Of a stretch of 10,301 nucleotides of DNA, positions 2,163 to 8,853 are shown one piece after another. The stretch comes from a virus (taxonomy: Duplodnaviria; Heunggongvirae; Uroviricota; Caudoviricetes): the IMG/VR virus record IMGVR_UViG_2531839668_000006; one strand, 5' to 3'. Position numbers and translations under genes: made by a program. Within the stretch, counting starts at the first letter, position 1. Every line of letters begins with the position of its first letter. The notes under the pieces were generated by a model. The model worked only from the letters and a program-made list of their open reading frames with translations. It had not been told where the DNA came from and did no database searches.

Positions 2163-2197
2163 GACAAAAAACAAGGCGATATCTGATTGACATCGCC
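2163..2197 (-). terminator. Candidate Rho-independent terminator of the SOS operon (- strand)
   Basis: Stem GGCGAT (2175..2180) / ATCGCC (2192..2197), extendable by a wobble pair; the - strand RNA continues UUGUUUUUUGU (plus-strand A-run 2165..2173). Stem is short, loop about 11 nt. Confidence 0.4.
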
Positions 2198-2252
2198 TCT
2201 CACTCATATGTAACCCTTTTTGATTAGTAAAAACAAGCGTCTATTGACAAAA

Positions 2253-2486
2253 TCAATGCAGCCAGCTGTCGTCTTCCCACACCTTCTGCATAATTTTCAT
2301 CACTTGTTTTCTTTCTTCGTCCAGTTGCAGTCCGGTCAGTTCCACACCGTTAGAGCTACCTTTACGGATACGGATTACCGTTTTGGGATACAGGGGGCGC
2401 AGATTGCGGTAAAGCTCGGATTCAAGGGCGTCCAGGGTAGACTGGCTAATCTTCTGCTCTTTATCGATCATTATTTCAATGCGCAT
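2253..2486 (-). CDS. dinI: DinI-family protein (77 aa)
   Basis: From the internal ATG at 2486..2484 the product MRIEIMIDK...LDALESEL...ERKQVMKIMQKVWEDDSWLH aligns along its length with E. coli DinI as recalled (MRIEVTIAK...IDALAGEL...QETWESADDW). GAGGTG lies 6 nt upstream of the ATG. Confidence 0.85.
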   Translation of the reverse strand: MRIEIMIDKEQKISQSTLDALESELYRNLRPLYPKTVIRIRKGSSNGVELTGLQLDEERKQVMKIMQKVWEDDSWLH

Positions 2487-2496
2487 AAAAGTCACC

Positions 2497-2685
2497 TCAG
2501 TTGATGACATCCATTGAGCGGTTGTATTCGTGGCTTCTGATTTTTGCCATGAGTTCATCAGTCAATTCAGAAACCCACTGCAGAGCCAGCCCCTTCTCTT
2601 CATCACTACACTCACTAGCCGCTACAAGCTTAAGAAAAAAATCAATGCGCTGGAGCTTCAAAGACTCCAAAAAATAGTCCTGCAT
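2497..2685 (-). CDS. Small protein (62 aa), first gene of the LexA-controlled operon; positional analogue of the 186 Tum antirepressor
   Basis: ATG at 2685..2683 with a strong AGGAGG about 6 nt upstream (reverse complement of 2692..2697). Sits directly downstream of a LexA-box promoter and 10 nt upstream of the DinI-like gene. No family recognised from the sequence. Confidence 0.55.
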   Translation of the reverse strand: MQDYFLESLKLQRIDFFLKLVAASECSDEEKGLALQWVSELTDELMAKIRSHEYNRSMDVIN

Positions 2686-2726
2686 CTTTCCTCCTATGAC
2701 ACCACACGCAATACTGTATGCATAAC

Positions 2727-2769
2727 CACTGTTTATATTTACAGTATATAATAATCTTACTGATGTAAA
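2727..2769 (-). promoter_or_regulatory. SOS promoter with LexA operator (CTGT-N8-ACAG) overlapping the -10 element
   Basis: 2727..2746 reads caCTGTttatatttACAGta, matching the LexA box consensus TACTGT(AT)4ACAGTA. On the - strand a -35 TTTACA (2769..2764) and -10 TATACT (2748..2743) put the operator across the -10 and start site. A CTGT half-site also lies at 2714..2717. Confidence 0.7.
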
Positions 2770-2838
2770 ACGTTTTTTTACGCTTATCAGCCTGATATGC
2801 CTGGTATTATTAAGAGCACGAATTGTTAACCAGCGTAA

Positions 2839-5253
2839 TTAATACAGGTTCCGCCACTTATCATCTTCCTGCAAACGCTGGTTCCGATAGAAGATACGCA
2901 GGCCTGCTCCTGACGGAATACTGCCGCCGCGAAGGAGTAAATCGACCTCTTTCTCGCTGCCATCAAATCCTCTGGATTTCAGTTCATAGACGAGCTGCTG
3001 TCGTTGATGGTCTGTAATTCGCTGTTTGTAGTCTCTACGCCGTTTCGGTTTCACCAGACGTAACCTTGCAGCCAATTCCCGGCGCTCCTTTTTGTTCATA
3101 CTGTGCAGGTAATCGTGCAACACCTTGTCATCCATGCGGGTAATGTCCGTTCTGGGGTCCCCATCAGCTGATTTATCTTTCTCCTGTTGGTTCAAATTTT
3201 CAGCAAGGGGACAGTTATTGCCACGAGTCCAAGGGGCGCAAGCGCCCTGGTCGGCTGCCGCCTCCTGAACGTCAACGGCCTTACGAACCATTTTCCACTT
3301 CACGGCATGAGTGCAGATCTTGCCCTCTGCAATAGGTGACCAGATGCCATAAATACGAATGCCGTGATCGCCATAGGCGGTCGGCTCTTCGTTGATTTCA
3401 TAAGCAGTTCTGATGAGGTGATATTTGCGGGGAACCAGTACGCCACCCTGCTTCATGATGTAGGTGGCAAAACAACCAGCATCAGCAGCAGCCAGAATGG
3501 CATCAAGGCGCGGGTTATCCAGTACCGGCGCACCTGCTTTTTTGTCCCCCTGTTGCCTTGCCGCCTGACCAGCCAGCAATCGCAGTTCACGGTAAGCCTG
3601 ACGCCCCGGAATGCCAAAGAAGCGGAATTGCTGAACACGATGCAGAGACGCCCAGGCATTAACGTATTCAGCATTATCACGCAGGGATTTCCCCGTTTCC
3701 TTGCTGATCTCGCCAGCCAGACCACGCCCGTCAATGTTCTTACTGATGTATTTCGCGATGTAGCTTGTTGGCGTACCTTTGCGCGGGTTAATCAACTCAG
3801 ACTTAAAGCGCGGCCCAGTGTTATTGCCCAGCTCCTCGCGGTCTTCACGGATGGCAAACTTACGCAGTAATGCAGTGATGGTGCGGCGGTCTTTTTTGCG
3901 CATAAAACACAACAGGTGCCAGTGAACTGTACCGTCATGATGCGGCTCAGCCACCCGCACGCCATACCACCGCAATCCGGCTTTGTGCATCGCCTTACGA
4001 AATGCAGCAAACATGCCGACCAGATAATCACTGCTTTGTCTTACCGTCGCATTTGTCCAGGTTGGGTTGGGCCTGCCGTTATTTAGCGTGGAATGGAAAC
4101 GTGACGGACAGGTGATGGTGTAGAAAACGGCGCAGTCACCGCGCATTTCCGCGATAAGCTCCAGACCTTTAACACAGGCCATCATCTCATTGCGGCGATG
4201 CGCTGGGTTGCTGCTGCTGGCGTTTACCACATCCTCCATGTCCAGCGTGTCGCCGTCTTCGTTCACCAGTTCATGAGAACGGAAAAACTCCAGCGACTTA
4301 CGGCGCTGCTCACGTTTATGCATCACGGCTTCATAGCTGACATAAGGAGATGCTTTTTTGCTGACAAGGCAGACTGCACGCAACTGCTCTTCCCGCCATT
4401 CGCAACGCATCTTCCATAATTTCCGATACCACCAGTCGGCGCACAACATACGCGCCAGCGAACCCGGAATGAGTTCATAGGGCACGGGTTTACGGCGGTT
4501 TCTTTTCCGACGGAGTTGCTCAAACGCAGGCGGGATGACATCCAGACGCAGGGTTTCCGCTGCCACCCTTTCCCATGTATTGCGGATTTCTTCTGGCTTA
4601 ACGTCATCGGTGGCATACAAATCGCCACAAGCGGCATCAAGGCACATACTCATATGCGCAGCTACCAGGGTGGACAGGCGTTTCACCTGATCCTGACTCA
4701 TTTCAGGCAGGATCAGCAGGCCGTCCAGCCCTTCATGGCTTGCCATAAAGCGAAAAGATGCAGATAGCTGACTGTCGCGTACATGCTCCAGTCGTTCCAG
4801 ACATGGCTTAATCGTCTCACGTAAATAGCGGGAATAAGCCTTTGGCCTGCCCAGGCTGCTGAAGTATTCAATACGTTGCATCAGCGGCTTGCTGATATGG
4901 GAAGGCTGGGCGTTGACGTCCGCCAGAATGACCATATCCGGATTAAAACGCTGCTGCTCATGCGCCAGCTTTGCCCGACTAATGAGCTTATCCTGTTCCA
5001 TTTCGCGCTGGACAGGATCACGGGATTCATTAAAGAAATAACGCTCCCAGACCTGATCACTCAGCGCCTCACGGCGCAGCTGTTCCTGCTCGTTATCGGC
5101 AGCGTACAGAGTGATCAGGTTTGAAAGCGTAGAAACCGGCGCAACTTCCACCGGGTCCAGATAAGGGTTAATGGCCTTTTTCGGGCTGTTCCATGAGAAC
5201 GATGCGGCAGCTTCGTTAAAGCCGCAGCAGTTGTTCATATCGGCATGACTCAT
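2839..5253 (-). CDS. A: P2 gpA-type rolling-circle replication initiator (804 aa)
   Basis: Contains an HUH-type motif VHWHLL (codons at about 3916..3924) and paired active-site tyrosines SYIAKYISK (Tyr codons 3762..3760 and 3750..3748), as in phiX174/P2 gpA. Start ATG at 5253..5251 overlaps the Dam stop codon (ATGA). Confidence 0.9.
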
Positions 5254-7220: not shown

Positions 7221-7387
7221 TTTGACTTTCTCCGTTTCCTCGTGGTCAATTCAGACAGCAATTCATCTTGTGAATGACATGGATGCCAGCGTTTTCCATC
7301 CTCACCCATGATCCAGCCGTGACCGTAGTGCATTGCCGGGCTTTGCTTTACCAGCAGCGATGCAAATGATGGTTCTTTCGTCAGCAT
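7091..7387 (-). CDS. Possible Fil-like early protein (frame open for 98 aa; 3' portion doubtful, possibly frameshifted)
   Basis: ATG at 7387..7385 lies 8 nt after the CII stop with GAGGTG upstream. N-terminal part (MLTKEPSFASLLVKQSPAMHYGHGWIMGEDGKRWHPC...) looks protein-like; the C-terminal 40 residues are Arg/Cys-rich and overlap the 74-aa ORF. Fil assignment is by position and vague recall. Confidence 0.3.
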   Translation of the reverse strand: MLTKEPSFASLLVKQSPAMHYGHGWIMGEDGKRWHPCHSQDELLSELTTRKRRKSKCMQRKVKWFISFVTEGRVIQYLKMICSVVIRRCRAMAVTFSR

Positions 7388-7394
7388 AAGCACC

Positions 7395-7904
7395 TCACAG
7401 CAAACCGAATGAAGCACCGAGTCCGGTCACGGTATCAACTGCACTCGCCATCGCAGGGTTAGCCTGTAAACGGGCCTGCAATGAAACAGCAGCCAACGCC
7501 ATCAGTCGTGTTACAGAGTTAATGCTGCTGATAGCATCACGACGACCTGCACTGGTTTTTACATCGCCAGATACCGCACCTGCAGCAACACGCCCGATCT
7601 CTGCGGTTGCACTCATGACGTAATGTGGCAGTTTCTCTTTTGCCACCTCATTAATCGGTACACATGGCAGACAATGAATCTGTGCCAGAAAACCATCTAC
7701 CAGCGTTGAATCTTCAGTCAGATCGGTAAGCAGCCAGATTTCTGGTGCGGTTAATAGATGAGGCTGAGCTGGGTTCAGCTTGTTCCGCAGAATCTGCACA
7801 TTCATGCCTGCACGTTCTGCCAGTTGCACCAGATTGTGGCGCAGTGCAAATGCACGACAGGCTTCATCAAAATGTGGATGTTTGGAAACTTGGTAATCAA
7901 ACAT
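7395..7904 (-). CDS. cII: 186 CII-like early regulator (169 aa)
   Basis: Second gene of the early operon, immediately after the Apl-like gene. Length from the ATG at 7904 matches the 169 aa of 186 CII as I recall it. The ORF-track start at 7910 is a TTG; AGAGG lies 8 nt upstream of the ATG. Confidence 0.7.
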
Positions 7905-8158: not shown

Positions 8159-8283
8159 GATGCAACATTCCTCGTTTAATGATGATTAATCAGGACGAAT
8201 ACGGATCGTTTGTACTTTGTGAACACCATAAACATACGATCGCAAAATGAAATCGTCAAGATAAAAGTTCACTTGGAGTGACC
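8159..8283. promoter_or_regulatory. Lysis-lysogeny switch region between apl and cI with candidate pR and operator-like inverted repeats
   Basis: Candidate - strand promoter: -35 TTGACG (reverse complement of 8254..8259), 17 bp, -10 TATGTT (reverse complement of 8231..8236). Inverted repeat GATCGTTTGT (8204..8213) / ACATACGATC (8232..8241), one mismatch, overlaps that -10. A second repeat TTAAT-N4-ATTAA lies at 8176..8189. No convincing rightward promoter for cI found. Confidence 0.45.
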
Positions 8284-8853
8284 ATGAATTTGGAGAAAGG
8301 CGGACGAGGCGCTATAGAGCGCATGGTAGAAGCTTATGGATTCAAAACTCGACAGGCGTTGTGCGATCATTTAGGAATCTCTAAAAGTACACTCGCCACA
8401 CGCTACATGCGTGACTCATTCCCAGCAGAATGGGTAATCCAGTGCGCCCTTGAAACGGGCACCTCGCTTAATTGGCTCACAACCGGACATGGTTCAAAGC
8501 AAACTTCAGGTAATACAAATACTATGGAAGTTGCTAAATATGTATTATCTGATGGTGCCTTGCGTGAAGACGGTTTTTATATTTTTGATAAGGGATTTCT
8601 ACCCTCTACGTTTAAAAAACCTTTTGTCATCACAGATAACAATTCTGAATTTATTTGTGATAAAGAATTTGATGATATACGTGATGGTAAATGGGTAATA
8701 AGTATTGATGGCGAAGTAACGATCCGTGACATTACTCGTTTACCCGGTGGAAGAATCTTCGTCGAGGGTGGAAACAGAGCCTTCGAATGTAAGATAGAAG
8801 ACATTGAAATAATTGGTAAAATTATAAGTTTAACAGTCAAGTATGTTAAATAG
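8284..8853 (+). CDS. cI: 186-type CI repressor (189 aa)
   Basis: N-terminal HTH region (AYGFKTRQALCDHLGISKSTLATRYMRDSFPAEWVIQCALETGTSLNWLTTG) matches the 186 CI-type repressor pattern as recalled. Length matches 186 CI (about 192 aa). GGAG lies 5 nt upstream of the ATG at 8284; the ORF-track start at 8278 is a GTG. Confidence 0.8.
   Translation: MNLEKGGRGAIERMVEAYGFKTRQALCDHLGISKSTLATRYMRDSFPAEWVIQCALETGTSLNWLTTGHGSKQTSGNTNTMEVAKYVLSDGALREDGFYIFDKGFLPSTFKKPFVITDNNSEFICDKEFDDIRDGKWVISIDGEVTIRDITRLPGGRIFVEGGNRAFECKIEDIEIIGKIISLTVKYVK

Follow-up and report, generated by a model that had tools for sequence, protein, structure and literature searches.

The window, which here means the whole stretch of 10,301 nucleotides that was analyzed, covers the early genes of a 186/Fels-2-type prophage of the P2 family; it encodes an integrase, the immunity repressor CI, a Cox/Apl-like protein, a CP76-type CII, a Dam methylase, and the replication protein gpA. 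Gene A is followed on the same strand by a short operon of two small genes, for a presumed antirepressor and a DinI-like protein, whose predicted promoter overlaps a LexA box. The features of this locus, together with the CI gene, are as follows:

2839..5253, minus strand: gene A (gpA), replication; Pfam Phage_GPA, E = 6.6e-128; directly 5' of the operon.
2773..2779, minus strand: A-tract AAAAAAA just 5' of the -35 hexamer; kept across 32 loci, with conservation digits of 7-9 on a 0-9 scale.
2764..2769, minus strand: -35 hexamer TTTACA of the putative tum (p95-like) promoter; found in most of 33 loci; counterpart of the annotated -35 of 186 p95.
2741..2746, minus strand: putative -10 hexamer TACTGT; hexamer and LexA site overlap as annotated for 186 p95.
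2727..2746, no strand assigned: LexA box 1.
2712..2731, no strand assigned: LexA box 2, a candidate from the sequence, with a 15-nt offset and conserved columns.
2690..2695, minus strand: ribosome-binding site AGGAGG of the 62-aa ORF, read from the sequence; conserved in Fels-2 and DuoHS.
2497..2685, minus strand: tum/tumA, presumed antirepressor of 62 aa; phrog_698; identical to DuoHS ECHS_RS04495 at 61 of 62 residues and 98% identical to Fels-2 STM2728.
2253..2486, minus strand: tumB, DinI-like protein of 77 aa; Pfam DinI, E = 6.6e-23; 41% identity to residues 71-145 of 186 Tum, 78% to PsP3 TumB.
2163..2199, minus strand: intrinsic terminator at the end of the SOS operon, corresponding to t95a in 186; the scan gave a stem of 11 bp, a loop of 5 nt, and a T-run.
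8278..8853, plus strand: CI, 186-type immunity repressor and presumed target of Tum; Phage_CI_repr, E = 2.8e-33; Phage_CI_C, E = 5.4e-29.

LexA (SOS) box 1 occupies positions 2727-2746 and reads CACTGTTTATATTTACAGTA, or TACTGTAAATATAAACAGTG on the minus strand. It is the sole match to CTGT-N8-ACAG in the 10.3-kb window, where 0.12 matches are expected by chance and 23 of 200 shuffled versions contained at least one; its agreement with the 20-nt LexA consensus TACTGTATATATATACAGTA at 17 of 20 positions (three mismatches) was reached by none of 200 shuffles. Read along the minus strand from 2769 to 2727, the promoter consists of the -35 hexamer TTTACA (2769-2764), a 17-nt spacer, and TACTGT (2746-2741), which doubles as the -10 hexamer and as the first six bases of box 1, in the geometry of 186 p95. 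The earlier note, made from the letters alone, had proposed a near-consensus LexA box lying over the -10 of a leftward promoter for a 62-aa ORF and a DinI homologue; all of these elements were recovered, the two ORFs being located downstream of the promoter, the 62-aa ORF behind an AGGAGG ribosome-binding site. The two hexamers were assigned by analogy with the annotated 186 p95 promoter and by their conservation; a generic sigma-70 promoter scan did not call the tum promoter, because TACTGT fits TATAAT at only three of six positions. A MAFFT alignment of the window promoter with 186 p95 misplaced the boxes and was not used. The A-tract next to the -35 hexamer is conserved across genera, unlike its neighboring sequence; from its position, it is possibly a proximal UP-element subsite.

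From the end of box 1 to the start of the 62-aa ORF, the gap measures 41 nt. At the other end of the operon, the terminator hairpin (2163-2199) appears in both the minimum-free-energy and the centroid folds. Further downstream, a 243-aa ORF on the minus strand (1462-2193; phrog_1353) is the counterpart of Fels-2 STM2726 and has the position and length of 186 orf97; as a homolog of 186 Orf97 it was rejected, since BLASTP (E = 4.5) indicates unrelated proteins despite equal length and position. The true start of this ORF is likely the one at 2142 (MKINN...), because the part upstream of it overlaps the terminator; the stretch LAVILTGC in its translation resembles a lipoprotein signal, and searches against PADLOC and Pfam returned no match. 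Two adjacent minus-strand ORFs, 625-1095 (156 aa) and 214-621 (135 aa), match the two halves of the 357-aa PADLOC profile PDC-M11A, a candidate defense protein (E = 1e-58 and 1e-48), and likewise the two halves of phrog_6345; they share one reading frame with a single stop between them (...NLVWKE*KMSYANY...). The pair is either one gene split by a nonsense codon or a form that naturally consists of two genes. The pair falls into the gpA-gpQ defense hotspot of P2-like phages.

Conservation was examined in 33 loci that encode the 62-aa protein, sampled with one genome per species from approximately 15 genera of Enterobacterales. A LexA box occupied the same position in 31 of them, with a perfect core in 25, CTGT-N8-CCAG in five, and CTGC-N8-ACAG in one; of the remaining two loci, one is on a contig that ends inside the box and the other, in Siccibacter turicensis (L034), has decayed. 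When the loci are anchored on the box, the resulting footprint reaches 1.58-1.66 bits per column in the box (1.9 in its core) and 1.51 in the -35 hexamer, against 0.45-0.78 in the flanks. The Siccibacter locus (ca. 7280-7680) has the sole degraded box, in which the left half is kept, and its 62-aa ORF is truncated; operator and gene appear to decay together.

The DinI-like gene follows a different pattern: in 13 of the 33 loci, no tumB follows the 62-aa gene (L008, L010, L017, L022, L027-L034, and L036), and two others (L018 and L035) retain only a tumB fragment. The DinI gene is dispensable, and the conserved unit therefore consists of the promoter, the box, and the 62-aa gene. In database records, homologs of tum are nearly always annotated as "hypothetical protein" and in a few cases as "levan regulatory (domain) protein", and several phage records lack an annotation; "levan regulatory protein" is a wrong label for a gene that is experimentally defined as tum.

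The earlier note had described a single operator; this holds for box 1 and fails for the single-site layout, since a second box is evident by sequence at 2712-2731. This imperfect LexA box 2 (CAGTGGTTATGCATACAGTA on the minus strand) begins 15 nt after the start of box 1 and overlaps it by 5 nt, the shared bases being CAGTG; the whole operator reads TACTGTAAATATAAACAGTGGTTATGCATACAGTA on the minus strand. With six mismatches to the LexA consensus and a poor left half-site (GTGG in place of CTGT), box 2 raises the question of whether only box 1 is a LexA operator, and whether positions 2712-2731 are kept for another reason, as the start region, as the site of a second regulator such as has been reported at some colicin promoters, or as an mRNA leader element. 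The fact that 186, PsP3, and the relatives in Pantoea and Erwinia function with one box is compatible with this explanation; the conservation pattern speaks against it. Across 24 related Enterobacteriaceae loci with the 15-nt spacing, the offset between the boxes never varies while leader length ranges from 19 to 34 nt; ACAG is found at +29..+32 in 22 of the 24, and the columns belonging to box 2 only carry 1.55 bits, compared to 0.45 bits for the leader that follows. The same ACAG is present in none of eight single-box loci; the single-box condition was found in 186, PsP3, and loci of Tatumella, Pantoea, and Erwinia.

A search of a plasmid collection with the operator adds a second argument for two LexA sites. 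Matches of 37-43 nt with 84-89% identity were found on small Col-type plasmids and on the Yersinia pestis plasmid pPCP1, directly 5' of the genes for colicin Y, pesticin, and klebicin; in these operators, box 2 also starts at +15 and shares CAGTG with box 1. The window thus has the structure of a colicin-type double SOS operator, two 20-nt boxes that start 15 nt apart and overlap by 5 nt, and its 37 nt are near-identical to the colicin Y, pesticin, and klebicin counterparts. The likeness ends at the operator: the controlled genes are unrelated, since a prophage antirepressor operon takes the place of a bacteriocin activity gene on a Col-type plasmid, and the -35/-10 context of the bacteriocin operators differs from that of the window, where box 1 overlaps the -10 hexamer. 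Double boxes of colicin genes are reported to bind two LexA dimers, which makes repression tight and induction late and prevents untimely expression of a lethal product (PMC2994835). Given these observations, a single functional LexA site is an unlikely explanation, and box 2 is regarded as a site that LexA would occupy together with box 1. The literature searched, which extended to Fels-2 without its primary paper, contained no description of a double SOS box at tum promoters.

The relationship of the 62-aa protein to known Tum proteins is distant. BLASTP found no match of the 62-aa ORF to 186 Tum or to PsP3 TumA, and no family was assigned to it by Pfam or PADLOC. Profile searches place it in phrog_698 (its own family, E = 9.7e-38), followed by phrog_8554 (1.1e-8) and phrog_1993 (0.002), the family of PsP3 TumA; the N-terminal 70 residues of 186 Tum match the same three families in a different order of strength, phrog_1993 (1.5e-23), phrog_8554 (3.4e-12), and phrog_698 (5.9e-6). 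Comparison of the two family alignments by hhalign yielded E = 3.6e-4 with a probability of only 37%, and a co-linear match over residues 2-43 in which E7, R13, C26, and A34 are aligned. Many of the 186-type Tum N-terminal domains also exist on their own, as proteins of 62-78 aa. The AlphaFold2 model of the 62-aa protein is a confidently predicted two-helix hairpin (pLDDT 89.5); a Foldseek search of this model against the PDB returned nothing significant (all E > 1), and the fold is generic. Cys26 (codon 2608-2610), a single cysteine in the predicted hairpin turn, is invariant in a sample of 17 sequences of this Tum family and conserved at 90% or above in a larger one of 39; it aligns with the near-invariant Cys26 of the 186 Tum N-terminal family. 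The 62-aa ORF is read as a remote, functionally equivalent member of the TumA family whose homology is suggested, and not proven, by these profile matches. The kinship with 186 p95 that the earlier note had assumed consequently has two sides: layout and DinI-like part agree with 186, and the 62-aa ORF is only a remote, profile-level relative of the N-terminal part of 186 Tum.

In 186, as in the window, the p95-tum promoter lies just 3' of gene A, its LexA box starts at the -10 hexamer TACTGT, and the operon ends with a DinI-like moiety followed by a terminator; the 186 repressor CI is inactivated by Tum and is not cleaved. The two differ in gene structure, Tum of 186 being a fusion protein of 146 aa with internal starts where the window has two genes, and in the operator, which in 186 is one box at 18 nt from the start codon and in the window a double box with a 41-nt gap. 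The split layout is found in PsP3 tumA/tumB, which also has a LexA box upstream, in this case a single one; PsP3 tumA encodes 60 aa, is annotated as "UV induction of prophage", and belongs to phrog_1993 and not to phrog_698. The order of gpA and operon in the same orientation is common to 186, PsP3, Fels-2, and DuoHS. Of the defining parts of the 186 module, the following were found in the window: a LexA box lies over the operon's core promoter; the operon is located directly 3' of gene A in the same orientation and is closed by a terminator; a DinI-like moiety follows the antirepressor part, as a separate gene in the manner of PsP3 and Fels-2; and the repressor belongs to the 186-type CI family, with an N-terminal helix-turn-helix domain and an oligomerizing C-terminal domain. 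This CI is 32% identical to 186 CI and matches the 186 CI structures 2fjr and 2fkd in the PDB; translation probably begins at the ATG at 8284, the start given in the DuoHS annotation.

The closest relatives of the module are found in Fels-2 and DuoHS. The Salmonella phage Fels-2 is 97% identical to the window over positions 2200-2900 and shares the double box; its STM2728, the counterpart of the 62-aa protein, is annotated only as "hypothetical", and STM2726.1, 100% identical to the DinI-like protein of the window, as a DinI-family protein "similar to TumB of PsP3". The same stretch is approximately 98% identical to many Klebsiella P2-like prophages. Fels-2 and PSP3 are described as having a tum that is divided between two genes, of which, for PSP3, the upstream one is given as the antirepressor and the downstream one as a DinI homolog (Lemire et al., 2011, PMC3121763, citing Bunny et al., 2002 for Fels-2). 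According to a summary (PMC12626290), Fels-2 was lost in all survivors of lexA-null Salmonella LT2. The lambdoid prophages Gifsy-1, -2, and -3 resemble the window in having a LexA box over an operon that combines a DinI homolog with a small antirepressor directed against a non-cleavable repressor; they have the opposite gene order, with dinI first, and neither their repressors nor their antirepressors belong to families related to those of the window.

DuoHS, a prophage of E. coli HS, is essentially the same element: between positions 2200 and 2900, the window is 99.1% identical to E. coli HS, and of 5426 complete E. coli genomes, 1125 carry this stretch. No promoter difference is seen between the -35 hexamer and the end of box 1, the gene order gpA-tum-dinI-like is shared, and the CI proteins are 96% identical; the differences are that the box 2 spacer is altered at two bases and that the 3' cargo genes differ in part. 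In DuoHS, an in-frame deletion of tum (ECHS_RS04495) abolished lysis by mitomycin C and the formation of viral foci, as did the lexA(Ind-) allele G85D, which encodes a non-cleavable LexA (Ortiz de Ora et al., Nat Microbiol 2025, PMC12055606). The locus tag ECHS_RS04495 denotes the 62-aa ORF flanked by gpA and the DinI-like gene. At 2683-2705 and 2477-2499, the window contains perfect matches to the primers published for the deletion, which therefore spares the DinI gene and takes out nothing but the 62-aa ORF. The deletion check suggested by the earlier note has, in effect, already been done in this near-identical prophage, with loss of mitomycin C induction (PMC12055606), and the antirepressor logic of 186 type that the note had suspected is supported by these phenotypes, by the 186-type CI, and by the position of the operon after gene A. 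The requirement for tum and for a cleavable LexA derives from the literature on DuoHS, a prophage 98-99% identical to the window; the sequence anatomy and its conservation come from the window analysis itself.

The DuoHS phenotypes also bear on a lambda-like mechanism, in which RecA-stimulated self-cleavage of CI drives induction, and the operon, by way of its DinI-like protein, does no more than modulate the SOS response. Proteins of the DinI family are known modulators of RecA, and the C-terminal domain of CI has a weak, sub-threshold match to Peptidase_S24 (E = 0.0053; 16.9 bits against a cutoff of 23.3). Yet deletion of the 62-aa gene alone abolishes the induction of DuoHS, with its nearly identical CI; this CI belongs to the 186 family that is induced through Tum; and the DinI gene is the part of the operon that can be missing while box and 62-aa ORF persist. 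The self-cleavage mechanism is effectively refuted by the deletion phenotype and is assigned a very small residual probability; by analogy, the same phenotype implies that the CI of the window would not be cleaved during SOS. The interpretation that is preferred here, with high confidence, is that of the SOS-induction module of a Fels-2/DuoHS-type P2-family prophage, in which a LexA-repressed Tum inactivates CI.

How Tum would act on CI is less straightforward. The 62-aa protein is strongly conserved, with a median pairwise identity of 0.82 across 25 loci and almost invariant residues 1-52; the co-resident 186-type CIs of these 25 loci form 16 clusters at 80% identity, with a median identity of 0.62 in the N-terminal DNA-binding domain and 0.33 in the C-terminal domain. 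The two proteins do not covary (Spearman -0.03). All assessable loci retain a 186-type CI; some loci seemed to have no CI, and in the two that were checked (L013 and L025) CI lies outside the fetched flank. The absence of covariation sits uneasily with a specific antirepressor-repressor pair, unless Tum contacts the better-conserved N-terminal domain of CI.

A module that is controlled by LexA and essential for induction could also act through another conserved partner of the 62-aa protein (Apl/Cox, CII, a host factor, or RNA polymerase) and thereby tip the switch indirectly. The near-invariant residues 1-52 in the face of so many CI clusters would suit such a partner, as would the far better conservation of CII than of CI in the same loci; the protein is no more than a distant homolog of the CI-binding half of 186 Tum, and the wording in the DuoHS paper is that Tum "inhibits pro-lysogenic regulators" (PMC12055606). 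On the other hand, the Tum N-terminal profile matches are co-linear and of equal length with the same four residues aligned, genomic position and regulation equal those of 186 tum, and the 186-type CI that accompanies the gene in every assessable locus offers its N-terminal domain as a possible common docking surface. The TumA of PSP3 is reported as the antirepressor (PMC3121763). An indirect route is considered improbable. By analogy with 186, CI would be the direct target of the 62-aa protein. If the protein docks on a conserved N-terminal surface of CI, its uniformity and the diversity of CI are reconciled, and cross-induction among heteroimmune relatives is predicted, as for the antirepressors of Gifsy prophages. 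Shearwin et al. are reported to have found in 1998 that 186 Tum binds CI and prevents operator binding. Later papers describe that 186 Tum inhibits or sequesters CI (PMC7708051), and that one Gifsy antirepressor can act on several repressors (Lemire et al., 2011, PMC3121763).

Taken together, the following course of events is proposed for the preferred model of a LexA-repressed Tum acting on CI. In the lysogen, host LexA would sit on the double operator, with box 1 over the -10 hexamer and box 2 over the start site and early leader; LexA binding and the exact transcription start are predictions from the DNA sequence. LexA would thereby shut a promoter that otherwise looks strong, with its TTTACA hexamer, 17-nt spacer, and upstream A-tract. 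After DNA damage, activated RecA would lead to self-cleavage of LexA and to the synthesis of a short transcript that ends at the terminator (2163-2199) and encodes the 62-aa Tum/TumA and the DinI-like TumB. Tum, a predicted small helical hairpin, would inactivate the 186-type CI without cleavage, probably by sequestration; the early lytic promoter would then be released from CI and the prophage induced. The probable role of TumB is to modulate RecA and the SOS response; the switch would not need it.

This module is already known, from descriptions of Fels-2 and PsP3 and from the genetic tests made in DuoHS. The logic is textbook knowledge for 186, and since it is confirmed genetically in DuoHS, its confirmation here adds nothing new. 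The additions are modest and consist of the colicin-type double operator specific to the Fels-2/DuoHS clade, the dispensability of the DinI gene, and the contrast of a conserved Tum with diverse CI alleles. As a tentative proposal that should be viewed with considerable doubt, a colicin-type double operator may, in the Fels-2/DuoHS clade, have taken the place of the single box that 186 and PsP3 have, for an induction that is tightly locked, late, dependent on a threshold, and limited to a subpopulation, like colicin release; its near-invariant 62-aa Tum may at the same time be universal and counter many heteroimmune CI alleles of the 186 type as their antirepressor, probably via their conserved N-terminal domain. 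A double SOS operator points to an induction threshold that is tightly repressed and reached with delay. If the combined proposal is true, one SOS-induced prophage could cross-induce its co-resident relatives; the existence of one conserved Tum for many CI alleles predicts that P2-like prophages in the same host induce one another in this way. The time at which a very common prophage family kills its host after DNA damage, including the damage caused by antibiotics such as fluoroquinolones and mitomycin C, is set by this module.
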